A stretch of DNA of 27,270 nucleotides from contig MEDY01000237.1 in NCBI GenBank assembly GCA_001724265.1, positions 62,001 through 89,270 on the forward strand, read 5' to 3'. Under the pieces are notes generated by a model. That model saw nothing but the letters and a program-made list of their open reading frames with translations, was not told the origin of the DNA and ran no database searches. Positions within the stretch are counted from its first letter, which is position 1, and each line of letters opens with the position of its first letter. Shown here one piece after another: positions 1-18,700 of this stretch. The stretch comes from Rhizaria sp. SCN 62-66. Lineage: Eukaryota. A program made the translations under genes and the position numbers.

Positions 1-2
1 GG

Positions 3-2618
3 GACGAGATTGTGGCGCTGCTTGTGGCCGCTGAGGCGAAGTAGCGCGGTAGCGGCGGTGGTACTAGCAACCGCAGTTCCGGTGGCAACAATGGCGGCGG
101 GTCGAATAACTCTGGTGGCAATGGCAGTGGACTCGCGGCAGCAACATAGGCAAACCGGCATACCTTTGAATCTCTTTTTAACAACGCCAACAACAATGGC
201 AACAACAAATCAGACAAGAAGAACGCTAAGACGAGCTCGAACACCGACACGACCCGTCATAGTTCAAGTCAAAACACGTCCACTGTGAAAAGCTCACACA
301 GCAGCACCGAGACCAGCCCCAGCCACGACCGCAACATCGGCAGTAGTCCCCGCCGCCGCAATGTTAGCGCCGCCAGCCGCAACCGCAACAGCAGCAGCGG
401 CGGCAGCAGCGGTGGCGGCAGCAGCATCGCCGTCGACCGTGCGGCCGCCGCCGCCGCCGCCGCGGCCCGCGCAGCCGGGGACCCTTCGGGCGGCGCGCGG
501 GCGGTGCAGACGGCGGCGGCGGTCGAGTCCGCGCAGCGGCGCCTGCTGCTCGACAGCGCCATGGTCCCGGGGCTCAGTGTGGTGGCGCTGCCGACCGCGG
601 CCGAGGCGGCGGCGGCGAGTGTGGCTCGCGAGTGGGAGCAGGAGGAAGACGACGAGGCCGAGGTCGAGCACGGGTTTCTGCGGAACCTGCACAGCGGCGG
701 TGTAAGTAAGCTGAGCTTGAATAGCGGCGAAGACGATATCGGTCCTGTCGCTGTGCGGGGCGCCAAGAGTGTGGCTGCCGTCGTCACCGACAGTGGCGAG
801 GAGCTCGACCCCTTCGTCAATAACAGTGACATCGTCGATGTCTTGGACACCAACACTGTTGACCTTGACAGCGACGTTGAGCGCGCGTTTGGGGCGAGCA
901 ACAACAAAAACAAGCCTAAGTCAACGTCAAAGACTGCTCACATCGCTCCTGCCGTGTACACCGACGTTGAGGGCAACGAAACCGTCGTCAGCGCCGCTGC
1001 TAGCCGCGGCCCGCTGTCCGACGCGGAGGCGGAAGCCGAGGCCGAGGCCGTGTTGCAGCGCCTCATTGCCGACTCCGACTCCGAGTCAGCCGCCGGCCTG
1101 CGCGAGCGGCCGCGCCCGTCGTCGGCGCGCTCGCCGCCGCAGCGCGACCCGCAGTACGAGGAGCCGCTGCAGCGCAGCGTCGAGGGGCTGGCCGTGCGCC
1201 GCGGCGGCGTTCACCCCGTCACGGGACTGCCACTGGCTGCCGCCACCGCCGCCGTGTACCTCGACAGCGGTAGCGAAGGGGTCGAGTTCGGCCCTCTTGG
1301 CAGCGACAGCGACGGGCGGCTATTCATCAGCCGCGGTCACGGTTACGGTGGCGGCGACGACGCTGGGTCTGGCATGGAGTTCGACACCGCGAGCGGCAGC
1401 GGCAGCGACGGGGACTTCCGTGTCACTCACGGCCGTCGCAGCCTCGGCCGTCGCCGCGACGGCGGCGACAGCGACGGCGTCGACAGCGACGGGTACGACT
1501 CCGAGGGCCGCAAAGTAATCCGCGTGGTCAACGATGCCGGCGAGGTCGAGGTGTACGTGTTTTCTGACTCGGACGGCGAGCCGCGCTCACTCGACGAGGC
1601 CATGGAGGCGGTCTACAGGGCCACCGACGCCGACGCTGATGCCGCGGACAGCGACGGGCCGGACGCCGCGCTCGTCGCGCTTGCCAACGCCACCGATGTC
1701 GACGCGGACCACTTCTTCTCCGCGCACGGGCCCAGCGACGCGGCCGGCCGGGCGGACCCGTTTGGGTACTTCTCCAGCCAGAGCGAGAGCGAGGGCGCCG
1801 TTCTTCTGCACCGCGGCGGCGGCAGCAACAACGGCAACGGCGGCCGCAAGCTGCTGCCGCCGGTGCCCCCGCTGGGCGGCGGCTCCGGCGCGGCGCTGCA
1901 CGGCCACGGGCACGGGTACGCAACACACGGGTCGCTCGCATACGGGGACTACCTGCCGGGCGTTGTGCGTGACGCCTGTGCCCCCGGCGCGGTGCTCAGC
2001 GGCGCGGGCGGCGCGCTGCCGCCGGGGCCTGGGGACGAGTTCTACCACCACCGCAACGCGGTGATTCGCAAGCATCGCCACGCTGCTGCCGCAGTCGCTT
2101 CGGCGAAACCTGCGACGGCGACGGCGACGGCCAAGGCAGCAGCAGCGGCGGCGACCGCGGTGACGGCGACCGCGGTTGGCGTCAACGACGGGCGGCCCCC
2201 GAGCAGCGCCAAGGCGAACGCGACCGGCACTGGCACTGAGACCGACTCCGACAACAACTCTCCCAGTCAAAGCACCACTTACGCCGGTCTCAAGTGGGAC
2301 GACGGTGAGACCGCCGCGGGGCACCGCGCCGTCGCGGCTGCTGCAGAGCGCGGCGGCTGGCTGTCTGGCGCCGAATCCGCCGAGTCTGCGGCTGCCGAAT
2401 CCGAGCTGGACCTCGACTCTGACCTGGACGTCGCAGTCAGCACTAAGGCCAAGGCTGCGGCGGGGGCGGGGGCGGCGGCGGCGGGGAGCGACGAGGAGTG
2501 GGGCGGGCGGCTCAACGCGGACGAGGCCGAGGAGCGCCGGCGGCTCGAGACGCTGGCGCGGCTGGACGACATCGCGGCCGAGATCGCCGCGGGCGGGGGC
2601 CGGAGCAGGCGCAAGTGA
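3..2618 (+). CDS. 5'-truncated hypothetical low-complexity acidic protein (>=871 aa), read through two in-frame TAG codons (42-44, 147-149); many DSD/SDSE motifs
   Basis: The frame of ORF 285..2618 runs back to the window edge with no TAA/TGA: DEIVALLVAAEAK*RGSGGGTSNRSSGGNNGGGSNNSGGNGSGLAAAT*ANRHTFESLFNNANNNGNNKSDKK...STVKSSH. Composition matches the rest of the protein. GC drops sharply after TGA 2616-2618. No domain recognised. Confidence 0.8.
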
Positions 2619-2918
2619 GACTGTGCGTTGTTGACCTTGATCTCCAAAGTCGTGATGCCTATTTGTTACATATTACTCAAAATCGGTTCTTATTTATTAA
2701 TATATTCTGCATCTTCAATAACCAGCAAAAAAACTTTGTTCTTCAGGCATACAAAACGTAGTGCTTTCAAACAATAAATGAAGGGACAGAATGATAAAAG
2801 GTCTAACTAATGTATTCGTCGTAAAATATAATCTCACTCTAATCATAATAAACGTGTTGCTTTTAAAACAACGCGCTTCACAGTCAATGTTTGTGCTATA
2901 ATGCTACTCCGCTGCCGC

Positions 2919-5900
2919 TTACCGTGAGTTCTCCGTCGAAGTGATCCCGATCGAGAACTCGTGTTCGCTCATCCCGCCGAACTCTCCCCCAGCGCTCCCC
3001 GCCGCAGCGGCAGCGCCGAAGTCGCCGGAGCGCCGCGCGGCGGGGGAAGCGGGTCCGAACGCGGGCCACCCACCGGCGCCTGCCACCACGGGCCCCACGC
3101 CCGCCGCGGTGGCTGCGCTGGGCTGGCCGCGCGCGCCGACGGGGAGGCCGGGCGAGGCCGCGGCGCCCGCGGAGAGCGAGGACTTGGAGCTGGGGCGGTA
3201 GGCCGACTCGTCGACCAGAATGCTCGCGTAGCTGGGATCCGTCCCGCCGTTGCTGCCGCCGCCGCCGGCGGCGCCGTAGCCAAGGCCAGCCGCGTACGCG
3301 CTGCTGCCGTAGCCGCCACCGACGCCGCCGCCGACGCCGCCGCCGACGCCGAAGCCGTAGCCCGCGCCGCCGCTGCTGCCGTAGGCGCCGGAGCCTGAGG
3401 CGGCGGCGGCATAGCCCCCGAACCCGGTGTTGGCGGGCGCGGTGGGCGACGGGGCCTGGCCCCAGGCCGACCGCAGTCCGCCGCCGCCAGCACCAGCGCC
3501 AGCGCCGCTGTTGGCAAAGACGTTGCTGCCGCTGCCGTTGACGTTCGCGGGGCTGGCGTGGACGTTGGCGCCGCCGTAGGAGTTGAGCGCGGCGTTGTTG
3601 GCCGGCGAGGGCATGAAGGACAGACTGTCTTTGCCGCCGCTGCCGATGACGGCGGTGAGGTCGCCCGTCGCGGTCGAGGTGCCGTGCTGGCTGGGCGAGG
3701 CCGAGCCGCGGCTGCGGTGCACACGGTCACCGTCGCGGTCACGATCACGGTCACGATTACGGTCAGACTCGCGGTCACGGTCGCTGTCGCGCCTGTCCTT
3801 CTTGTCCTTCTTGTCCTTTTTGCTATCCCGGTCGCGGTCACGCTCACGTTCGCGGTCACCTTTATCGCTGGCGCCGTTGGACGACCGGCTAATGCTGTTG
3901 CGCCTGCTCCCGGCGGCCGCAGCGGCGGCGGCAGCGTTAGGAGTCACGGCCGCCACAGGCGTGCCGCTGCGGCTGTTATTCAAGCTGCCGCTGCGGCTGC
4001 CACTGCGGCTGCCGCTGAGGCTGCCGCGGCTCATGTTGAGCGCCTCCTCCTGCGCGCGCAGGAAGCCGCGGTTCTCGAGCGACTTGTCCAGCACGTACGG
4101 GCCGCCGACCGTGCCACCGCCGCCGCGGGCCTTGGCCTGTTGCTGCTGCTTCTCTGCGCGGCGGCGCTCGCGGTCGCGCTCACGGTCGCGGTCGAGCTCC
4201 AGCTCCCGCGCGCGCTCGGCCGCGGCCTCTGCGGCGGCGGCGGCGGCGGCGGCCTCGACCCTGGCGGCCGCGCGCTGCTGCCGTACGGCTTCGGTGCGCT
4301 TCTGCTCGGCGGCCGCGGCGGCCAGACGGGCGGACTCCTGCTGCTGGCGCATGCGCTCCAGGGCCTCCGCGCTCGTCGCGGCTGCGGAGTCCGCCGCGTC
4401 GCTACTGTGGGCAGCCGGGGGGATGTGCGCGCGCGCGAGGGCGCCCTGCAGCTCGCCAGTGAGAGTCGCAAAGTGCATGGACGACTGGGATACGGCACCG
4501 GTGTTGTTAAAGTTGTTAGCATATCCGTTAGGGTTTGCGCCGTTGGCGTTGTTAGCGTTTGCGGTATTGTTTGTGTTGTAGTGAGAGGGGAGAGCGGGGA
4601 TACTCGCGTCAAGGCCAAAATCAGCGTCGTCAAAGCCGTTGTTCTTGGCGACGTTGTTTCCGCTGCCAACACCGTTATTCTTGTTGTTGTTGTTAACCGT
4701 GTTGTTCTCGTCTTGCTTCACAGTGGGCACTGCAGCGGCCGAGGACGAGTCGAGGCCGCCACCAAGGCCGAGGCCGGCAAAGAGGGAGTCGTTCATCAAC
4801 GTCGTGTTGTTATTGTTACCGCTGCTATTGTAGAGACCGTTGTTGATGTTATTCGCTGCAGCATTGTTGTTACTGGCAGTCGGCAGCGCAAGCAGCTTCA
4901 TTTTCTGCTGTGGCTTAACGACGCTCTCGGCCTGGTATGCAGACGGCACCTCCTGGATCTCCTCAACGTGGTCCTCGCCGTCGTCCTTGCCGCCGTCGTC
5001 CTCGTCGATGACCGTATTGCCGAGGTCTAACCCATACGCCAGACTGAAGTCGCCGCTGCCCGCCGCCTGCAGCTTCGGCGCCGGCAGCGGCGCAGGCGCC
5101 GGCGCAGCGGCAGCAGCAGCAGCAGCACCGGCACCGGCGGTGGCGGTGATGGGACCCGTGGTGGCGAACGTGGCGGCGGCAGCGGCCGTGTCGTCAGTGG
5201 CGTCCAGGTCGAGGCCGAGGCCGCGGAGGAGGCTGTCGTCGTGTGCAAACGAGACGTTATTGTTCTTCTTCGCAACACCAGCAACACCAGCAGCGCCTCT
5301 AACAGTGCCGGTGACTGAGCTCGTGCTTGCGCCCGCACCGACAAGAGCGCCGGCGCCAGAGTTAACAACATCTGCGTTCCCAACATTCGCATTCGCGCTG
5401 TTGTTGCTGTTGAGAGTCGCAGGAACAGTGCGGGGCTGGATGGGTGAAAATCCTTCGAACAAGCTGCCAGGAAGACTCGCCACACCCGCATTCGGGCCAG
5501 CAGCGGCAGCAGCAGGGGCAGGGGTGGGGGCGCTGGTCGCAGCGGTGAGGGGACGCGCGCTGTTGCCGCCGCCGTTCCCACGGAGCCCTGCATTGCCGTT
5601 ATTGCCGGTGGCGACAGGCGTGTTGCCGCCGCCGCCGTTGTTGTTGGCGGCGCTGCCGCCGCCGTTGCTGCTGACCGAGGCCGAGCCGGGCGAAAGCAGC
5701 ACCACTGGCGCCGCGGCGGCGGGGATCTTGAACGGCGTAATGCCGATCAGCGCGCCGTGGCCGCCGCCGCCGCCGCCGGGCGCAGTGACGTTGTTGCCGT
5801 CATCGCTGGCGTTGGGGGCTGCGGGTGGGACTGTGGGCCGCGGGGTGACCGTGAGCGTGCTGTCCTGAACCGATGTCTCAGTGGCGTTAGCGGCGGCTGC

Positions 5901-7830
5901 AGCAGCGCCAGTCTCGTTGAGATCCGTCTCATCGAAATTGGCGTTTCTCATGCTGCGTCTCGCGTTGACACCATCGTCGCGAATGTTCGCAGCAGCAGGA
6001 ACGGAGATTGGCGCGGGCGCGCGCGGCGAATGCTGCATCGAGCTGTTCAGGCCCATCGCGCTCAGTAACGAGTCCGAGGCGGTATCCGCCGCCGCGGCCT
6101 CCGCAGCCACCGCCGCAGCAGCAGCAGCAGCCGCGGCAGCCGCAGCCTGACGCTTGGCCCTGAGCGCGTCCTTCTGCTGTTGCTGCAGCAGCCTACGCTT
6201 CGCGTCAGCCGCGGCCGCAGCCTCGGCCTCGGCCTCAGCGGCTGCGGCCGCGGCGGCAGCCTCAGCGGCAACAGCGGCGGCGGCCTCGGCCTCAGCGGCT
6301 GCGGCGGCCGCGGCGGCGAACGACTCATCACAGGGGTCGGTCTCAGCCTCGGCTGCGGCGGCCTCGGCGACGGCCGCGGCGGTAGCAGCAGCGGCGGCAG
6401 CGGTCGCTGCGGCCTTGCGGGCCTGGGCCTGCTGCCGCGCGCGCTGCATTGAGGCGACAACGTTGGCCAAACCGCCGCCTTCCGCGTCATCGTCAGCGCC
6501 GGCTCCGTCCTTGCCTTCGTTGTCACTATGATCAACGTCGTTGTCGTAGAGCTCCTGCTTGACAGGAGGAGCAGGCGCAGCCGTGTTAGACGGAGACTTC
6601 GCGATAATGTTCGAGTTATTCTTGACCGCTTGATGAGCACCAGCGCCGCTAAGATGGTTGTTGTTGATGTTGTGATAGTACAACTGCTGGTGATGCTGCT
6701 GCTGTTGTTGCTGCTGTAGCTGCAGCACCTGCACCTGCGCCTGCGCCAGCTGCAGCTGCAACAGCTGCTGCACCTGCGCCTGCGCCTGAGCCGTCGCCTG
6801 CGCCTGAGCCTGTTGCGACTGCAGCTGAGCCTGCAGCGCAGACTGCTGGTGGTGCACTGTGATAGCGCTGTCGCCGTCGCCGTTTGCGATTGCCGCATCG
6901 GCGACAGCAATCGGAGCGATGGCAGCGGCAGCAGCAGCAGGAGGGTTGAACAAGATCGCCGCGACTTGCGGCTTACCTTTCACGCCAGACCCCGTCGCCG
7001 CAGCCGCCGCAGCCACACCGGCCGAGGCCTCGACGGCGGCCAGACGGCGCTCCAGCTCTGCGCGCGCGGTGGCGGCCGCGGCGTCCCTGGCGGCGGCCGC
7101 GGCGGCCAGCGCGGAGGCCGAGGCCGAGAGCTGGTGGCCCCAGTCGGCGGCCTCCGCGGCGGCCTCGGCGGCCAGACTCGCGTGGACCGCCGCCCACGAC
7201 GACGCGGGCGGCGCGGGCGCCTCGGCCGCGACGGGGCCGGGGGCGGCGCTAGGGCCGGAGCTGTTGTTGATGTTCGCGCTGTGGCTGTGGCTGCGGTTGT
7301 GGTGGGACGCGCGCGCGCCACGCGTGCGGCCTGACTTCGAGGTGCTGACGATGCTGTAGTCCCTATTAGTGCTGACGCTTGCGCTCGCGCTAGCGGTGGT
7401 GCCGTCGGAGAGATAGGGCTCTGCGAGCGAGTCCGTCACCTGCACGCCTACGCTCTCGCGCATGACGGCAGCGGCGACGGCGCTGCCGACAGATCTCGCG
7501 TTTGCATTCGGGTTAGCGATGGCGTTGCTGTTGTTGTTGTTGTTGTTGTTGTTGCCATCATCATTGTCATCGTCGTCGTCGTCGTTACGATCGTCAGCGT
7601 CACCCGCTCTCGCTCTCAGCAGCTGCTCCTGCTGCTGCTGATGTTGTTGTTGCTGCTGCAGCTGCTGCTGCAGCGCAAGCGCCTTGTGCGCCTGCAGCTG
7701 GTCCTGCGCCACGGCCAGCTCCCGCTCAAGGTGCGCCTCGCGCTGCCGCCATACCGCCGAGGCCTGCAGCCGCTCCAGCGCGCCCGCGCGCACCGACGTC
7801 AGCCCTGCGCTCTCATCCCCTCCAGCACCA

Positions 7831-7861
<31 letters not shown>

Positions 7862-9226
7862 TGCCGTAGCCAGTGCCGGAGCCAGTGCGATCGCTGTTGG
7901 CCTTGTGCGCCGCGTGCTGCGGGGACGCGAAGTGCAGCGCGCGTGCGACGTCGACGTCATTCTCGTGCTCGCCGTCGCCCGCGAACGAGGCGGGGACACG
8001 GGACTGCGAGGCGGGGACGCGCGCGTGCATGTGCGCCGGAGTCAGCGCGAGCGCGGCGGCGGCGGCATTGGTAGCGACGCCGGAGTGGATCAGGCGCAGC
8101 AGCTGCGCGCGCTTGCGGGCCGTCGCGGCGCCGGCAGCGCCAATGACGGCGGTGTTCTCGACGGTCGCAGCGTTCGCAGCTGCAGCGGCATCGGCGTTGT
8201 TCGCAATCACGTTGCTGTTGCAGCTGCTCTTCACACTCTTGTTGTTGTTCTGGTTGTTGGCGAAAGAAGTGACCGGCGTGGAGTGCAACGCCACCAGGAA
8301 CGCGGGGTCGCGCCCCATCGGGCCCGTGGCGGCGCTGACGCCGAGCCGCGGGTCTTGGCCCAGGGGCAGCACCATCCTGCGCTCGCTGCCAGCGCCCAAA
8401 GCACCCGCAGTCGCGCTGGGGAGCAGCTTACCCCCGGCAGGAGCAGCGCCGTCCCGCGCCGCCTTAGCGCCGCCGCTGCTGCTGCTGCTGCTGCTGCTGT
8501 GCGCGCGGTGCGGAGTGACGATGGCCGCCGCCGCAAGCGCCTCATTGGCCCGCTCGTTCTCGCGCTCGCTGGCGACTTCGCTCTCAGCCTCCGCAGCCGC
8601 GCGCCGCAGGCGCGCCGCCGCCTCGGCCGCGTCCCGGGCCAACTCCCGCGCGCGCGCCCCGCGCAGCGGCAGCGGCGTGCCAGAGAGCAGGTGAGAGCGG
8701 CGCTGCGCGGCGGCGATGGCCGCAAGGCGCGCGTCGACCATGGCTAACTCCGCGCGCGCCGCGGGGGGCAGCATCGCGCCCACGCCCGCGCCCGCTGTAG
8801 CCGCCGCCGTCGCCGCCGTCGCCGCTGTGGCCGTAGTGGTCGTAGTGGTCGTGGCGGGGGCTGCGGTTACGGCGGTGACTCTGGGCGCAGCAGAGGAGCT
8901 GCTCACGGTCACTGGGGGGATCGCGCTGCTCACAGTCACCCCGTGATTGGTATAAACAGAGCCTGGGGAGGCTGAGGCGGAGACAGAGGCTGAGGAGAAC
9001 GTGAACGGCGACTGCTGCTGCTGCTGCTGCTGCTGTTGCTGGCACTGCAACTGTGACTAGACCTGAGACTTGTAAGGGGTTTGCGTGGGGACGTTGAAGT
9101 AAGTGCCCGCGGGGTAGACTAAGGGGTACTTAGCCTGTTGTTGTAAGGGCTCGACGCCGGGGGGGGCGTGTGACAGCGCAGCGGCCAAGGCGGCCTTGAG
9201 CTCGGCCTGGGACCTCACCGCCTGTC

Positions 9227-9264
<38 letters not shown>

Positions 9265-12032
9265 TGTTGCTGCTGCTGTTGCTGTTGCTGCGAAAGCTGT
9301 TTTTGCTGTTGCAGCACCTGCTGCTGGTGTTGCGCAAGAGAGGCGAAAGCAGGGTACTTTGACATCAACAAAGCGTTCATGTTGCCCGCATTAGCATCGT
9401 TGTGAGACTGCAATGTCTGTTGTTGCTGTTGCTGCTGCAGCTGCAGCTCTTGTTGCAGCTTCTGCAACGGCGATCGCGATCGCGGCTCCGACTGCAACCG
9501 CGACTGCAACTGACCATAAGCCCCAGCCCCAGCGCCAGCGCCAGCAGCACCAGCAGTAGCACTAGCAGCAACAGCAGCAGCAGCGGCAGTGGCAGCAGCA
9601 GCGGCAGTGGCATTAGCTGTAACAGGAACAGCGGCGGTGGCTTCGGTCTCCTCGTCCTCGATGCCGTCGCTCACGGTCACGCGCGAAGGGGACGACGTCG
9701 CCGCCGCTGCGGGTGCCGCCGCACTGCGGCTATGGCTGGGGCTATAACTCGCACCCAAACCAACACCAACATCAACAGCAACAGCAGCAGCAGCAGCATT
9801 AGCTTCGGTGTTAGTGATAGTGTGAGCAGAAGTGTTGTAGTTGTTGTTGCTATGCTGACTCTGGCTCTGGCTCTGACCCTTGTTCTGGCTGAGACTCGAA
9901 GCAGCTCCCCCTAAAGCCTGTGCCTCCGCCCGCGCGGCCCAGTACGCCCGCTCGCGCTCCTCAGCCTCGGCCTCGGCCGCGGTGGTGTCGGCCCCAGTCC
10001 CCGCCGCGGCGAGAGCTTCGGCACGGGCCGCAGCGCGCAGAGCGCGGTCGTGGGCGTCCATCTTGGCCGCCCAGTCAGAGGACGCGGCGTCGACGGGGTG
10101 ACCTTGGGCAGGAGTGGCGAAGGGACCGTGGGCAGCGGCAGTTGAGTGGCTGTGGGCAGCTGTGGTTGCAGCAGGAGTCATATCCGTGTTCGTGTTGCGA
10201 CTGCGCTGTTGCTGTTGTTGTTGGCCTTGTTGGTGTTGCTGTTGCTGATTCTGCTGACTCAGCAAGTGTAAGTACCCACTTAGACCCTCCCGCGGCGGGA
10301 AATCGTGAGCACGCGCCTCCTCTGCAGTCCAGACACCAGAGTACTCGAACACATCCTCGGCAGCAGCAGCGTGAGCGGGATTACTGAGGCCAGCGTTGTT
10401 ATAATAACCGAGATTATCCTTAGTGTGATTCGCCGTGAAATTGTTGTCGTTATACGGGTGATCATGTTCGTGTTGCCAATGCCGCGCCTCTGCCTCCGCC
10501 TCAGCCTTGACCATCTCTCGCGCCTTCATCGCATCATACGCCGCCCGCTGTTGCTCCTGCCACCCCGCCTGGTCCCCATGTGCTCCCCCATGGGTACCCA
10601 CGGGTCCGCGCGCCGCCGCCTGCGCCGCCGACACGCGCGGCCCCGCATCGTCCCCAAACCGCGCCGCCACCACCGGCAGCGACTCCGCAGCAGAGTCCAT
10701 GTTGCCTGCGGCGATGGCGCCCGCCGCGTGGGTCTGCGGCGGCGCGGCGAGGTAGTCGGGGTGTCGGTCGGGCCGCACCGCCGCGGGCGCATGTCCGGCG
10801 ACCGGGAACTCGGCCGCGTTGGGGCCGTGCAGGTGGCCCGCGGCGTGCGGCGGCAGCGGGCCCGCGGGGGGGAACGAGGCCACGGCCGTGGCGCCCGTCG
10901 AGGGCGGGGCTGCCATGGGCCAGGGGAACGACGACGCCGAGGGGGGCTGCGCGGCACCGTGCGTGCCCCCGTGTGTTCCACCGTGTGTACCGGGCGGGTT
11001 CGCGTCCGCGGTGGTGTAGTAGCGGTATGCGTGGCTCGTCGGGTCCAACATCTGCACTTGCTGTGCTTGCTGCGTCTGAGAGTGAGTGTTCGCCATGGAA
11101 TTGCCGTTATAAGTATTGTTATAAGTGTTGTTGTAAGTGCTCGGGGGCGGGTGGTCGGAGGGGAACGGCACCGGACTCGTCGGGTCGCCCCCGCCTGCAG
11201 TGCTGCCATGCCGGTACGCGTGATAACGCTGCTCACGGTCACCCGACGGAGCAGCAGAGTGACCGTGAGCAGCGGCAGCGGCGGCGCCGGGGGCAGCACC
11301 GCGGTCGGCGGTGTAAGCGTTATAGACGCCACCGCCGAGCCCCAGGCCCTGATCCTGCCCTGCTTGGCCCATAGCAGTGCCAGCGCCAGCGCCAATGTTG
11401 TAGACTGCGCCAGCGCTTGTGCTGGGGGCGTGGCCGAGCGCGCCGGGGGGGTTCGTGCCGGCGGCCGCACCCACGAGCATGGTCCCCGTCGGCTGCGGCA
11501 GCCTCGTCCCACCAGTGGCAGGAGTCAGATACGACGACTGCGGCTGCATGCCGGCCGCGAGCCCGGGAGCGGCGCCGGGAGCGCTGTTGCTGGGCCCGCC
11601 GCCGTAGCTCTGGTAGCTGTCACCGGCGGGGGCGGAACCCATGGCGACGGCAGGCGTGGGTGGGAAAGCTACTGCGGCAGGCGCGAGACCCAGCGCGGAG
11701 GCCGTCGACGTCAGGTGCGCAGGGGCCGCGGGGGCAGAACCGGGATACGCGGCCGCAGCGGAAGGCACGCCGACCAGGGACGTGCCCTGTGGAACGGGAG
11801 GCGCGGTAAGGGAGCCGGAGCTGCTCGCTGTGGGGTGACCATAACCCCCACCTTGCTGCTGCTGCTGTTGCTGCTGCTGATGTGCTTTGTTGGGGCCGTA
11901 GACGGCGCCCGTCGCTGGGAATAAGTGCTCCGCGGGAAGAGACGTCTCAAATGGGTTGGAAATAGAAGATGTGGAGAGGGCTTGGGGCGCGGCGCCGAAG
12001 GCAGCCTCCGGGGGAGGGCCGAGGTACGACAT
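2919..12032 (-). CDS. Very large intrinsically disordered protein (~3037 aa) with polyQ/polyA/polyN tracts, probable coiled coils and an RD/RE-rich segment; one in-frame TAG at 9057-9059
   Basis: Track ORFs 9057..12092 and 2919..9050 are in the same frame, joined by AAG TCT CAG GTC TAG TCA CAG TTG CAG TGC CAG (KSQV*SQLQCQQQ). First ATG at 12032 (MSYLGPPP), TAA at 2919-2921 followed by AT-rich DNA. There is no AT-rich spacer and no ATG at the junction. Confidence 0.8.
9228..9290 (-). repeat. CAG/CAA trinucleotide tract encoding 21 consecutive Gln
   Basis: 63 nt of (CTG/TTG)n on +, inside the large - strand CDS. Confidence 0.95.
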
Positions 12033-12919
12033 CGCTTGCAACGGGAAACTGTGATTCCAAGACCTGTGTGTAGAGAGCGAAGAGCGCGACAAGCATAGGT
12101 ATTATTTGAATTAATGTTAGATTGCTTATTGGCTAATTTGAATATTTGAAATTTAATCGCAGTGACAATGGCATGGCCTTTTTCCAGGTGGTGGAAGATC
12201 GCCTCCTCTTCTCAGCTCCCAGCTTGCCATGCCAAACGGCTCGATTCGTGGGGGTCCTTGGTCACGGCTGCGACAGAATATCAAAGACTTAAATATGCAA
12301 CAAAGTCTATATTTGTTGTATTTTTCATGTCTATTTTAAGAGAAAATTTAACATATTTTAACCACGCGTCTATATCAACATGTTTCATTGATATAGTGAT
12401 ACTTTCAATCGCTCTGCAGTGAGTGACAAACGTTATTGCAAACAGCAATCAACCAAGAGGCGTAAACAAGATAAAACTGGCATAAACAAGATAAAACTCA
12501 ACAAGAAAAAGTGAAAAAGTATATGTGTATTATAGGTGACCTTTTTACATGAAAAACTAGAAGTAATACGTGGTTTTTTGTGTTGTGCGACCGCATCATG
12601 ATACGGTGTCGCATTTGTGTTTTGGGTAATCAATGAGGCATTTGTACGTTAGAGCTTTGTAGGTTTGTTGTTGGCGCTGTTGTCGACGTCACAGAGTGGG
12701 GATTTATCCACTCTGCCGTCGCGCTTGCCTCGACTTTGTGATTGATTGTTGTCATATTTGAGCCTGTTTTGTTACCATTAAGGTTACAAGTTGGTAGTCG
12801 ATGTTGTGACAAGTTGACTGACGCGCATTAAGACCACGACAACAGAAAAAATACGTCAAGTATTCCCTGTCACACGTGTTCTAGAGTCACGCGTTCTTCT
12901 CGCCATAACAATCTCCTCC

Positions 12920-13435
12920 TTAGAAGTAGTTGACATGCTCGTCGGCTGCGATGGCCTGGCACTTAACGACCTCGACCTGCTTGTGGTTCGGGGGCAGGGG
13001 GCGGAAGAAGCGGCACGCAATGAACTCGGCCTCGGGCGCAGAGTTCGTGGTGGCGATCTTGACGAAGAAGTTGGTGCCGGCAACGACCTGGGCGCGGTAC
13101 TCGACGGGGGCCAGCGCGGCGGCGGCAGAGACGCCGAGCACACCAGTCAGAGAGAGGATCTGAGGGGTGGCGCCGGCGACGATGTCCTCCACGACGGGGT
13201 CCGCGGGGCGGATGTCGGAGGCACCGCCAGGGAGGGGAACCTGTGGTGCGGAGCGAGAGGGAGAACAAGAGTGATCAAGGGTGAGTCAAGTGGAGTCAAG
13301 GCGACGTAGGCAAGTGAGAAGACTGGGGGAAGTTGATATTGGGAAGAACAAAGAGAGAAGGAAACGTACGAAGCCCATAGCGGATGCGAGGACGCAAGCC
13401 AGGAGGACAAGGACGGCAACGGAAGTGAAGCGCAT
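12920..13435 (-). CDS. Cystatin (stefin/type-1-like cysteine protease inhibitor) with N-terminal signal peptide, 128 aa; exons 13435-13370 and 13240-12920
   Basis: Spliced product MRFTSVAVLVLLACVLASAMGF|VPLPGGASDIRPADPVVEDIVAGATPQI...EYRAQVVAGTNFFVKI...FIACRFFRPLPPNHKQVEVVKCQAIAADEHVNYF*. It has the N-terminal PGG, the QVVAG inhibitory loop, a stefin-like LP second loop and a C-terminal DE..xYF. Stop is TAA. Confidence 0.92.
13241..13369 (-). other. Spliceosomal GT-AG intron (129 nt, phase 0) in the cystatin gene
   Basis: Donor TTC|GTACGT, pyrimidine-rich body with an in-frame TGA (13286-13288), CTCAC/TTGAC branch-like motifs, acceptor CACCACAG|GTT. Splicing joins the signal peptide to the cystatin domain in frame. 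Confidence 0.9.
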
Positions 13436-14395
13436 TTGGAGCTGGGGGAAACTGTAGTGGTGGAAAGGGGAAAAAGGGAGGCACGTGGACAGAGGAGGGT
13501 GGAACGACGTTAGAATGGCACTTTGTCGAATGGCATAGACGCGTTTAAATGTGTAAAAGTGGAACAAAAACATTGAATTTGTGACCAAAAGACAGCAATA
13601 AAGCGCTTGTAAAAGTGCTGGAGTTCATGAAGGAAAATAAGAGGCCCTGAAAGGGAGCGATGTGAGTGAAACCGGATACCTCGTGGCCTCTCCTCGTCTC
13701 GTTCAAAACGGACACTTTCCAGAAGCACACAGCAGCACTCTTGCATAAGTAAGAGCAAATCGTAATCAACACCGAGTTTTACGTTTCTATGCATCAGTTT
13801 TAATCGCACAGACCCACGCACAAGCCTCCTTTAAGACTAGCTCATCTCCCCCCATAGCTTTGGCACCGACCAGCCAGCTGGTAGGTGGACGCTCCACGAC
13901 ATGGTCGAAAACGCGTTTGTGGTCATACGTGAAAAGTGAGATAAACGCATGCAGAACGAAGTGGTTGAAGAATAATTTGTTGTTTTTATTTGAAATAATG
14001 ATAATATCTTTTGCATATCGGCAAAACGACACATGTGTGTGCCCCTTTATCTATCTATATAGCTTTTCAACAGGGCAAAAATCTTACTTAAGTTCATGTG
14101 TTTGCAGTCATCTAATGACTTTGGGTTCTGATTCCGGTTTGTACGCAATTATAACTCACTGCTAGGAATGAAACAGCCGCTGAAATAAATAAATAGGTAA
14201 TCAGTCAAAGCTATCAGCCACTCCTAGGGTTCTCTTGTTTCCTCCAACCTCCCACTCATCGTTATCGTGTTTCGCACTCGCACGCACTCAAAGCTCTTCG
14301 CTCTTAGCTCTTAGCTCTGAGAGCTCGCCGCATACTCGCGCATCGCTGTCATGCCTGTATGCCTGCGCGCAGATCCGTCGCTTAGGATCGTTTGC

Positions 14396-15151
14396 TTAGG
14401 AGCGGGGCGCGACGGCGCAGACCTGGGCAGGGCGCAGCACGCGGTCCTGGATCATGTAGCCGTCCTTGATGATGAACGAGATGGTGCCAGGCTCCTGGTT
14501 GGGGTCGGGCAGCTGCGCCGTGACGTCGTGGAGGTTGGGGTCGACCTTCTGGCCGAGCGACTCGTACTTAGCCACGCCCTGGCCGGCGAGGACCTTGGCG
14601 AATGTCGCCTGGGTCATCGTGATGCCCTCGAGCATGTTGCGCAGGGGCTCGTTGTCAGCGTTGGCGGCCAGCTGCTTGTTGCCGGCGCCGATGGCCATGT
14701 CGACGGTGTCGGCGACGTCGAGCAGCGCCTTGCAGAAGGACGAGATGCCGAACTTCTTGGCGGAGGCGACGTCCTTAGCCGTGCGCTCGCGGATCGCGTC
14801 CTGCTCGGCCACCTCGGCCACCACGCGGTCCTGCAGCTCCTTGACCTTGGACTGCACCTCGCGGGTGCCCAGCTCGGCCTTGGCCAGCGCAGCCTTAAGC
14901 GTGTCGACCTGCTTCGACAGCTCCGCGGTGCGGGCCGCCGCGGCGGCAGTCGCGGCGCGCTCCGTATCGAGCAGGGCCTCGAGCGACTCGACAGTCACCT
15001 CCTGCACGGCCTCCTTGTCCGCGGGCGCGGCCGTGGTGAAGCGGCGCAGGGTCACGGAGCGGGAAGAGAAGAGCGACGAGGTGGACGCGGCCGAGGAGGA
15101 GACGCGGGAGATGGCGCCGGCCGTGCGGGTGAAGGTGGAGAATGCACGCAT
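14396..15151 (-). CDS. grpE: Mitochondrial GrpE (Mge1) Hsp70 nucleotide-exchange factor, 251 aa, intronless
   Basis: GrpE motifs: IRERTAKDVASAKKFGISSFCKALLDVAD, MLEGITMT, SLGQKVDPNLHD, PGTISFIIKDGYMIQDRVLRPAQVCAV. The Ser/Arg/Thr-rich, acid-free N-terminus (MRAFSTFTRT...LRRF) looks like a mitochondrial presequence. ATG 15151, TAA 14396-14398. Confidence 0.95.
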   Translation of the reverse strand: MRAFSTFTRTAGAISRVSSSAASTSSLFSSRSVTLRRFTTAAPADKEAVQEVTVESLEALLDTERAATAAAAARTAELSKQVDTLKAALAKAELGTREVQSKVKELQDRVVAEVAEQDAIRERTAKDVASAKKFGISSFCKALLDVADTVDMAIGAGNKQLAANADNEPLRNMLEGITMTQATFAKVLAGQGVAKYESLGQKVDPNLHDVTAQLPDPNQEPGTISFIIKDGYMIQDRVLRPAQVCAVAPRS

Positions 15152-15754
15152 TATCGAGACTGAGTAGGGGCGGTGCGACAACAAATGAAAGAGACATAAA
15201 TATATTTAGTTGTTGTGAGCAAGCTTGTGAAGAGAAAATGTGTCTATAAGCAAATTAAAAGATAGAACGGGGGCGATTTCGAGGTCTCGGAGCACCGACT
15301 CGAGTGAAGAAATGACGTGGTCACGGCAATTGAACACAGAAGTGCATTATGGCTCCATTCAGACTCAACAGTAAATCATAGTGAAGATAACCCATAAAGA
15401 TACGCTGCGGTATCAATAACAACAACAACCGCAACGTTTCTATGCTGCATCTGGCCTACGGACTTTGGACCTGTTTCGCTTCTCTGTCCGCTCCGACTCC
15501 ACTCCGGTGACCGTGTCGCACCGTTTCCACCACAAATTATTCGTTCGATTGGAACAAACTCAAGAAAAGTGATGCTGCTACCGCTGATCCAAAAAGACAA
15601 AGCATGGGGAAATTTCACAAAAGCTTTGACCAGTGGCATTAAATGTTGTTGGGGTGTATTAATATTAAGTACTACGTAAGCTGTGAGAATTAGTTCATAT
15701 TTTCAATAAAGTTGATTTTCATTCACGCGCGAGTATATCCCGCATATCTCTGTT

Positions 15755-18700
15755 TTAAAGAGCGGCGAAGGGTGTCTTGACAAGCGTATCCGTGCCCTTT
15801 GCGGAGCGGGCGAGCGTCTTAAGGAATCCCAGCGCAAGCAGCGACTGCGCAGCGCGCTCAAACCGGGCCTGGATCGGCACGCTGTTGAGCAGTTCGCGGA
15901 TTTGGGGCGTCATACGGAGCATCTTACCGCCTCCAGCGCAGGAGCGACGAGGCTTGCGACCACGGCGCTTCCGCACGCTACTGGTCTCTCCCTCCTCTTC
16001 CTCCTGCTCCTCCTCCTCTTCTCCGTCGTCGTCGTCGTCGTTGCTGTCATTGTTGTCGTCGTTACCGTCTGTGTCGGACATCGCGCGGCGCTTAGCCCCG
16101 CCCTTGCGCTTCGACTTGGCAGCTTTACCAGATGACTCTGCATCATCATCGTCGTCGGCATCGTCAGAGTCAGGATCGTCGAGGTCGTCTTGGTCAACAA
16201 ACTCGACTTCAACCCCCGCCGCGGCGCACGCAAATGCAAGGAACCACTCTCCAGCCTTGACGACACTGTCACTGCCCTCCAGAAGCCCCGCGGCAAGTGT
16301 GATATCGTCGCTGCCGCGGCCGAGACTCGCGCCCGCGCCCGCCGCCGCCGCCGCAGCAGCCGCCGCAGCCGCGGGGCCGCCACGGAAAGGCGCGCCCGAG
16401 AGCAGAACGCTGTTCTGCTGCAGACCGCCGCCGTGGGAGCTTGTGAGCGTCGTAGCGGTGGCGGCGACGACTGCGGCGAGCGCGGCCGTGCCCTTTGAGC
16501 GGAGGAAGTTTAGCCGCATGTGCGATGGCACCGCGTCGGCGCCGGCGGCCCAGTACGCTGCAACAGGGGGCGCAAGCGCGTCGACCGAGGCCGCGTCAAG
16601 GCCCCAGAGACGGGGTGGGGCGCCCACCGCGGGCGCGGAGGAGCTCCGGGCATCTGAGTGGCCGTGAGCCGGAGCCTGGGAGTGACTGGGCTGGGGCGGA
16701 ATGAGGGCGACGGAAGGCGGCAGCAGCATGTGAGGCAGCGGTTTGGTATCGCAACGCTGCTGTTGCTGCTTGAGCTTGAGCCTCTGCTGCTTCTTCTGCT
16801 GCTGTTGAGCCTTCGGGGTCGTCCCAGTGCGCTTGCCATGAGCACTGTCGTTGTCACTGTCACCGTCACCAATCACGACGCTGGCGTCCGAGCCACCGCG
16901 TGCGCTACTGTTACTGTTACTGTTGCCGTTGATACTCTCGGTTGCGCCAGTGGCGGCAGCCCAGAGCCCGACAGCCCGGAGTCCGGCCCAGGCCCCCACG
17001 CTGCCCTCCGCGTCGACTACGCCCGCAGCAGAGCCACTGGAGGCGCTGGCGTTCGAGGCGGCGCGGACTTGCGCGGCCGCCTGCTCGGCCGTGACCGCCG
17101 CCGCCTCTGCCGCGAGATAGAACCCGCCCGCGGCGGCCCCGGCGACGGCGGCGCGCGCGTCCGCGGCCGGCTCGGCTAACCCAGCGGCCGAGGCGACGGC
17201 CTCGAGGTCGCCGGGGGCGGCTCCGGCGAGTTGGGCCTCGTGCAAGGGCAGGCTGGACAGAGGAGTGCCAGCCCAGGGCAGGAGGGTGCAGAGCGCGCGG
17301 AGACAGCGCTGGCGCAGGGTATGCTCGTCGGGAGCGATGAACACAGAGCTGGGGTCGGTGCTATCGCAATTGTCGGCGCTCGCACTCGCATTCGCACTGT
17401 TATCACCCATGCTATTGTTGTTCGTGCTGTTCGAGAATCTGAGCGCGGTTGCCGCGGCGGGCCGTTGCGGCTGCGCCTGTGAGCGCGAGGCAGAGTACCG
17501 GTGGCTTGCGCGCGAGGGAGAGACGGGCGGTGTCTTGTACTCGACGCCGTCAGCGCCACCGTTGGAGTCGCCAACGTTGTCGCCGGTGTCGTCGTCATCG
17601 TCACACATCGCTTTACCGGCATTTGCACCTGCAACGGCTGCAGCGGCGGCTTGCGCCTTTGCGATCATGCGTTGAGCCACGGCCTCCTCCTCAGCGTCAG
17701 CTTCGGCAGCAGCAGCCGCAGCAGCCGCAGCCTCCGCCCCAGCGCCAGCACCAGCTACTTTCGCAGCAGTCGCGGCGGCAAGAGGGCCCTGGATGTACGC
17801 AACGACCTCCTCGGACGCGGTCTTGACTGCGGCGGCGGCGACGCCAAGCGTGCCGACGTACACGACGCCGCCGCAGCGCGGGGATGGCAGCGCGGCGCGC
17901 GCGGCGACGGCGAGCGCGGAGGCCAGTTCGTCAAGGCTCGAGCTGAGAGAGAGCAGAGATACGGTCGATGTCACTGTGAGCAAGTGACTGAAGCCTAAAG
18001 TTAGTGCGGGGGACAGAGAAGCAGCGGCCTCAGCCTCTGCAGCAGCGATGGCCGTTGAGACACAATTCGAATCGGCACTTGCGCGTGCACTCGCGCTCGC
18101 TGCAGCGTCACAGCTGGTGCTGATCTCAGCGCTGGAAACAGGAGCAGATGCAAGGGCCGCGGCAGCAGCACCGCGACCGCCCCGCCGAGACGGCGACTCA
18201 TAACTTGCATTCAACGACACAGAAACAGAAGTGCTAGAGGCCCCAATATTGCTCGCACTGTATGCGCTCGCGTTCGAGCTACTCGGCGTGCCAGGAGCGC
18301 TCTTCTGTGGTTGATGTTGTCGCTGTGCGACCATGCGCGCCGCAGCCTCCGCGGACCCCGCGACGGGCATGTACGTCAGCATCTGCCGCGCCACCGCGGC
18401 CTGCTGCTGCGTCTCCCGCACGAACGTCCCCGCGGTGGCGCCGGAAGGCAGCGCGAAGAGCAGCGCGAGCACGGTCGGCGGAAGCGACGCGAAGCGCGGC
18501 GCGAGGTGCGACAGGAACGCGGTCAACACGGGCAGCAACAGCGGCCGCGCCAGCAACGCCAGGTCCCAGTCGCGCAGCAGCAGCGACAGGCGGTGCAGGG
18601 CCGCGCGCGGGAGAGGCCACGGCAGCGGGGCAAACGCCGGGTCTTCAGACTGCGCCCCTGCAACAGTGGGCGACTGGGAGCAGGCGAGTGCGGAGAGCCG

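Follow-up and report, generated by a model that had tools for sequence, protein, structure and literature searches.

We analysed a stretch of 27,270 bases (the window hereafter: positions 62,001 to 89,270 of the forward strand of contig MEDY01000237.1, assembly GCA_001724265.1, filed as Rhizaria sp. SCN 62-66) in which two long genes, g1 and g2, contain three TAG triplets in frame; the question considered here is whether TAG is read in these genes as an amino acid. Five genes were read in the window, and its features are summarized in Table 1. The genes have a G+C content of 61-75%, against 43-53% in the AT-rich spacers. Three of the genes (g1, g2 and g5, with >871, 3,037 and >3,837 codons) encode proteins rich in alanine, glutamine, asparagine, glycine and serine in which a Pfam scan recognized no family, and GrpE is the sole well-conserved gene of the window. 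Spacers flank g2 on both sides, and no AT-rich spacer occurs within it. The host is a eukaryote: it has a spliceosomal intron and a GrpE presequence, and the nearest GrpE Atlas clusters are 100% Eukaryota. An earlier inspection of the letters alone (the sequence-only reading) had spoken of a GC-rich protist, of which the eukaryote is supported, by the mitochondrial-type GrpE and the intron, and nothing narrower; the nearest named GrpE, at 37% identity, is that of a chytrid.

Table 1. Features of the 27,270-base window, with codon-model scores (bits, coding over non-coding) for the segments beside the in-frame TAGs and for the verified intron
Feature	Position	Strand	Score (bits)	Description
g1	3-2618	+		Frame 3, open at window start; 871 visible codons; ends TGA 2616-2618; G/S/N/A/D-rich low-complexity orphan
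g1, 13 codons before first TAG	3-41	+	+13.1	
First TAG of g1 (TAG42)	42-44	+		Context AAG TAG CGC
g1, 34 codons between the TAGs	45-146	+	+22.1	
Second TAG of g1 (TAG147)	147-149	+		Context ACA TAG GCA; acceptor-like CATAG/G
g1, after second TAG	150-560	+	+123.3	
Spacer	2619-2918			AT-rich, flanks g2
g2	12032-2919	-		ATG 12032, TAA 2921-2919; 991 codons + TAG + 2,045 codons in a single frame; A/Q/N/G-rich orphan
g2, 60 codons before TAG9057		-	+37.0	
TAG of g2 (TAG9057)	9059-9057	-		CAG slot of repeat TCT CAG GTC TAG TCA CAG TTG CAG TGC CAG CAA CAG; acceptor-like GTCTAG/T
g2, 94 codons from TAG9057 to next ATG		-	+74.7	
Spacer	12093-12919			AT-rich, flanks g2
Cystatin-like small secreted gene	13436-12920	-		Ends TAA; one readable intron
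Verified intron of cystatin-like gene	13369-13241	-	-24.0	129 nt, a multiple of three; GTACGT...CACAG; 75% pyrimidine; in-frame TGA
Mitochondrial-type GrpE	15151-14396	-		Ends TAA; Pfam GrpE, E = 1.1e-39
g5	27268-15755	-		>3,837 codons, open at window end; ends TAA; no in-frame stop of any kind

Frame 3 of g1 is open from base 3 to its terminal TGA but for two TAGs, and the frame of g2 is open from its ATG to its TAA but for one. Over g1, g2, GrpE and g5 together (7,999 codons) these three TAGs are the only stops in frame, with no TAA, no TGA and no frameshift; the two shifted frames of the same four genes hold 121 and 294 stop triplets. The sequence-only reading had put all three TAGs in frame and the frame itself free of TAA, TGA and frameshifts, and both statements were confirmed, while the length of its "777-aa ORF" in g1 proved to be counted from a GTG, the same frame measuring 822 codons from stop to stop. 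Both g1 TAGs fall within the first 49 of the 871 visible codons and none occurs further on. The first in-frame ATG past TAG147 is at position 561, 137 codons on, and the first past TAG9057 is at position 8774, 95 codons on, so that an ATG start of their own is not available to the downstream parts. At all the other gene boundaries there is an AT-rich spacer of 300-950 bp (43-53% GC), and at none of the TAGs. Under the standard code, g1 would be left without a start across 137 coding-like codons, and g2 would be a 991-codon gene followed by a 6.1-kb 3' untranslated region that holds a perfect 2,045-codon frame.

The segments around the TAGs were scored with a codon model whose coding part was trained on g5 and GrpE only and whose non-coding part was trained on four spacers and the verified intron, a small and AT-rich set that thus serves both for training and for comparison and has no GC-rich non-coding control. 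The segments beside the TAGs given in Table 1 all score as coding, and frame 3 of g1 outscores each of the other two frames, with margins of 17.6 to 138.8 bits. The best non-coding window of 34 codons reaches 7.7 bits and none comes to the value of the stretch between the two g1 TAGs; 21% of genuine coding windows score below that stretch. The 30 codons directly before TAG9057 are ambiguous, at +3.7 bits. By this model, the sequence on the two sides of each TAG is in the same coding frame.

TAG9057 occupies the CAG place in a six-unit (NNN CAG) repeat, and the codon was almost surely CAG formerly. A silent change, if TAG means Gln, and a nonsense mutation from C to T would account for such a position alike; the preference for Gln voiced in the sequence-only reading draws support from the CAG slot and is matched in this by a recent CAG>TAG nonsense change. 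UAG-CARYYA is a motif of programmed stop-codon read-through, and none of the three contexts (TAG CGC GGT, TAG GCA AAC and TAG TCA CAG) corresponds to it.

The gene ends of the window are one TGA, at 2616 (g1), and four TAAs, at 2919 (g2), 12920 (cystatin-like), 14396 (GrpE) and 15755 (g5), as had been read earlier, and TAG ends none of the five. With termini from the related contigs L002, L003 and L004 added, the count is 12 TAA, 3 TGA and no TAG (n = 15), where the added termini are eight in L003 (the end of the HslV-like ORF having been moved past its intron) and those of GrpE in L002 and L004, all of them ORF ends read without transcripts. If one fifth of stops were TAG, a share assumed here, the probability of finding it at 0 of 15 termini would be about 0.035. 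The base after the true stops of the window is G in four cases of five and A in one, and after the in-frame TAGs it is C, G and T, a sample too small for interpretation.

Relatives of the window were sought in several collections. The GrpE scan of metagenome_contigs returned L001 to L004, that of genome_contigs only Enterobacter GrpE and that of viral_contigs none; a 41-base stretch of the window is absent from genome_contigs and from viral_contigs. L001 comes from another collection and matches the window at 2,298 of 2,298 bases (100%) in the GrpE region. In an exact look-up of four ATG-started ORFs all were absent from the collection searched, and GrpE alone was present, on 7 contigs of which the longest has 89,308 bases. 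No relative of g1 was found in metagenome_contigs. The region of g2 around its TAG, with TAG read as Q, had no match among the proteins of 973-3098 aa covered by a word-indexed search, and HMMER against 1.84 billion representatives gave five weak matches to g2 (E = 2.4e-4 to 9.4e-4) and no self hit; the four of the five that were read (P0063-P0066) are polyQ, polyT or polyA. No residue can be aligned to TAG because no homologue of g1 or g2 is present in the collections searched.

The most informative relative is L003 (contig 1-20456, 51% GC, intron-rich), whose GrpE is 56% identical to that of the window. Pfam supports four readings on it, namely an NIF/FCP1-like phosphatase, GrpE itself, a Ras-family GTPase and a proteasome-family ORF; the GTPase was read as Rab5-like and the proteasome-family ORF as HslV-like, labels given by reading. 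The labels mitochondrial carrier, SPT16 and ISY1-like come from translations, with SPT16-type Pfam domains for P0068, and a search with the L003 SPT16 matched only itself. A HslV in L003 would, as we take it, indicate a protist outside animals.

The organism recurs in other sequencing runs. Three runs (X1-X3), from two studies of bioreactor or wastewater metagenomes, contain 0.94-0.99 of the sampled words of the window; X1 may be the run behind the window, and X2, which belongs to another study, contains 0.96 of the sampled words of positions 1-9300. Contigs of X2, X6, X4 and X5 were aligned to positions 1-16000 at 90% likeness, an output that consists mostly of other organisms on the low-complexity parts. 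In the aligned parts the X2 contigs show a single difference from the window, at base 5895, and among the matches listed none spans 1-474 or 9057. For X2, X6, X4 and X5 no letter other than that of the window was reported at the TAGs, and again none of the matches listed spans the TAG sites. Among the joints listed (510 more are not listed) there is none at the TAGs and none at the verified intron either. Contigs of X5, a polyA RNA run, fall on parts of g1, g2 and GrpE, but they are no proof of transcription because the spacer 13796-14045 is matched too. In the aligned runs the contigs of the organism have depths of about 2-9. Within GrpE, at 14426-14657, X4 and X5 contigs show about 30 differences to the window, most of them spaced by three bases or a multiple of three, the pattern that changes at third codon positions would give; the same habitat seems to harbour a related strain or species, about 10% diverged.

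Considered as a whole, the anomaly is real, and neither chance nor an obvious intron explains it. We hold, with confidence about evenly balanced, that TAG is read as a sense codon, probably for Gln, and this is the single best explanation. UAG would be translated as an amino acid, most likely glutamine (a code like NCBI table 15; table 16 if the residue were Leu), UAA and UGA would end genes, and g1 and g2 would each be one continuous coding sequence, in which the three TAGs would be rare sense codons of weakly constrained low-complexity proteins. The rarity of TAG would fit an early or incomplete reassignment, which might work through a suppressor-type tRNA-CUA in competition with eRF1, or might have come about by codon capture once TAG stops had been lost. 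Read-through by ribosomes, the residue inserted and the mechanism are all things that we infer. Somewhat more doubtful, and put forward tentatively, is the wider proposal that an unsampled, GC-rich, intron-poor eukaryote lineage from wastewater-type bioreactors lost TAG as a stop and that the organism of the window is beginning to use rare TAG = Gln, first in fast-evolving low-complexity proteins, which would be an early codon capture affecting UAG only, lying outside the ciliates and taking place in a very GC-rich genome. The sequence-only reading of UAG as sense is partly supported, in that the TAGs do lie in frame, the frame is unbroken and TAG is absent from gene ends. With three codons, all in orphan genes, the claim of a new genetic code is better taken as a good lead than as a result.

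A number of observations weigh against a sense TAG, some of which are best told with the alternatives that they favour. In-frame TAG is missing from the conserved genes, which are GrpE and the cystatin-like one, and from the 3,837 codons of g5; all three TAGs lie in orphan low-complexity proteins, where no conserved position indicates the residue. The ORFs of L003 lengthen no more with TAG as sense than in controls. ARAGORN found no tRNA gene and Rfam no family in the 27 kb of the window, and a Pfam scan showed no eRF1 gene within it. Positions 93-242 of g1 score marginally better as non-coding, the margin being 0.11 to 0.35 bits per codon. Were TAG related to CAG as TTG is to CTG, about 49 TAGs would be expected, and 3 are seen. 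The possible nonsense substitutions in g1 and g2, calculated from codon usage, yield TAG in 69-72% of cases, and three of three would be TAG by chance with P = 0.33-0.37; that only TAG is found is weak evidence because of this bias. Two of the TAGs, TAG147 and TAG9057, have surroundings like those of splice acceptors, each of the three L003 introns read ends in TAG and one of these acceptors leaves TAG in frame before the SPT16 ORF, and 23 formal GT..AG pairs would remove both TAGs of g1 with the frame kept open.

The substitution bias and the low count, far under that of an established sense codon, speak for the view that TAG is an ordinary stop here and that the three are recent nonsense alleles, that is young CAG>TAG-type mutations, strain-specific truncations or early pseudogenes too young for decay. 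TAG9057 is a single C>T step from the CAG of its repeat, and orphan low-complexity genes may tolerate truncation. This account needs three independent disabling hits in two neighbouring genes, and in about 3,900 codons of slippage-prone repeats there is no frameshift, TAA or TGA; the mixed lesions that mark a pseudogene, frameshifts and stops of all kinds, are accordingly absent from the whole 7,999 codons. It also places both g1 hits in the first 49 codons, leaves g1, in the absence of read-through, with no ATG for 137 coding-like codons past TAG147, sits beside a run from another study that differs at one base in the aligned parts, and leaves unexplained that TAG is absent from all 15 of 15 termini of the clade. 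We consider it unlikely. Wrong base calls or a strain chimera in a low-coverage metagenome assembly would fit a metagenome contig, depths of about 2-9 and, among the matches listed, no independent run across the three sites; but three errors that all make an in-frame TAG, with no TAA, TGA or frameshift in 8,000 codons, are very unlikely, L001 is identical over its 2,298 bases, X2 has its one difference, and the four runs reported no other letter at the TAGs, with the limit on their span given above. An artefact of this kind is highly improbable.

Introns call for a closer comparison. Each TAG could lie in, or end, a spliceosomal intron that is a multiple of three in length and free of TAA and TGA, with acceptor 149 and donor 24, 12 or beyond the window start in g1, and with acceptor 9057 and a donor such as GTGAGG at 9218 (162 nt) in g2. 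The strongest point for this is the set of acceptor-like TAGs together with the L003 acceptors. Open-frame GT..AG pairs formally exist and are abundant in the CAG-rich g2, where an enumeration of 391 pairs also admitted lengths not divisible by three; depending on the candidate body, 14-67% of shuffles are free of in-frame TAA and TGA, codon scoring gives no clear verdict for 93-242 or for the 30 codons ahead of TAG9057, and the length of the verified intron is likewise divisible by three. The four introns read in the clade, a small sample of which three come from the distant relative L003, all begin with GTANGT (GTACGT in three and GTAGGT in one), whereas no such hexamer occurs on the + strand in 1-146, and of the four on the - strand of the window none lies between 9060 and 12032; for g1 a donor may lie beyond the window start. 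In frame, the bodies of the candidates look coding to the model, with +22.1 bits for 45-146 and +30.2 for 9218-9060 against -24 for the real intron, and their pyrimidine content is 40-60%, where the real intron has 75%. This account requires two or three introns that preserve the ORF, each with a chance of 1/3 of being a multiple of three, and not one frame-breaking intron was found over the roughly 7,700 codons of g1, g2 and g5; TAG42, moreover, has no acceptor context. In-frame introns are improbable in our judgement, a little more so than nonsense alleles. The probability that remains belongs to mixed or other explanations.

Two specific introns in g1 were tried and set aside. One from 41 to 149 (109 nt) breaks the frame, putting the upstream exon in a frame with TGA at 32-34, and had rightly been rejected in the sequence-only reading. 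One from 49 to 149 with exon 1 in frame 1 uses a frame that is 23 bits below the shifted-frame codon model. Donor-like GTAAGT/GTACGT hexamers also occur within the g1, g2 and g5 frames, at 702 (+) and at 4098 and 17861 (-), and the frames are unbroken there.

The cystatin-like gene has a signal-peptide-like start, a QVVAG motif and a Pfam Cystatin score of 19.9 bits (cut-off 22.2). A 66-codon ATG-started ORF at 91-289 (+, frame 1), read by eye, overlaps the start of g1 and is probably due to chance.

A sense TAG with TAA kept as a stop would not be without parallel. According to excerpts of PMC11687900, UAA and UAG are nearly always reassigned together, and UAG alone has turned into a sense codon in a handful of lineages; those with UAG only, UAA kept, are an uncultured rhizarian (Leu), Iotanema spirale (Gln), Scotinosphaera (Ser) and Protocruzia tuzeti (Gln). 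The phyllopharyngean ciliates, by the same excerpts, made independent UAG reassignments to Leu or Gln, with 92.6-100% of C-terminal alignments ending at UAA and with UAG found at gene ends no more often than sense codons are (PMC11687900). As far as these excerpts go, the window resembles the UAG-only lineages in having in-frame TAG within genes, only TAA and TGA at gene ends and a dominant TAA (4 of 5 in the window), and it differs in that they have many conserved genes with an aligned residue, while the window has 3 codons in orphans and a very GC-rich genome. With the phyllopharyngeans it would share the change of UAG alone, and it shares the dominance of UAA among stops; their UAG is distributed as synonymous codons are, unlike the TAG of the window, which is about 16 times rarer on the TTG/CTG analogy. 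Long, GC-rich and intron-poor genes like those of the window are also not known to be typical of ciliate genomes.

A further comparison outside the ciliates is Amoebophrya sp. ex Karlodinium veneficum, in which in-frame stops are reportedly rare. Excerpts of PMC6394959 state that stop codons are used as sense there. It is like the window as a non-ciliate protist with in-frame stops, and unlike it in that all three stops are affected, where the window shows TAG only. Within the clade itself, the GT-AG intron of L003 SPT16, whose acceptor TAG is in frame with the next exon, resembles the acceptor-like TAG147 and TAG9057; the window differs in having no GTANGT donor in reach and would-be bodies that score as coding. 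A literature search over the titles and the openings of abstracts in one library listed no UAG-only case in a GC-rich non-ciliate eukaryote from metagenomes. The case of the window, if true, would be of the same kind as the known UAG-only reassignments, set apart by its GC content, its lineage and the rarity of TAG.

What the finding means depends on which account holds. If there is no change of code, the case recalls that nonsense lesions in GC-rich, CAG-rich genes should as a rule take the form of an in-frame TAG. If TAG is read as sense, gene callers set to the standard code break up or omit genes of this sort, and both protein libraries searched are without g2. The theory of codon reassignment, with codon capture set against an ambiguous intermediate, has few natural examples on which it can be tested. 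A reassignment outside the ciliates, in genes of 61-75% GC and at a stage when in-frame TAG is very scarce, would be unusual on all three counts and would let one see how such a change starts.

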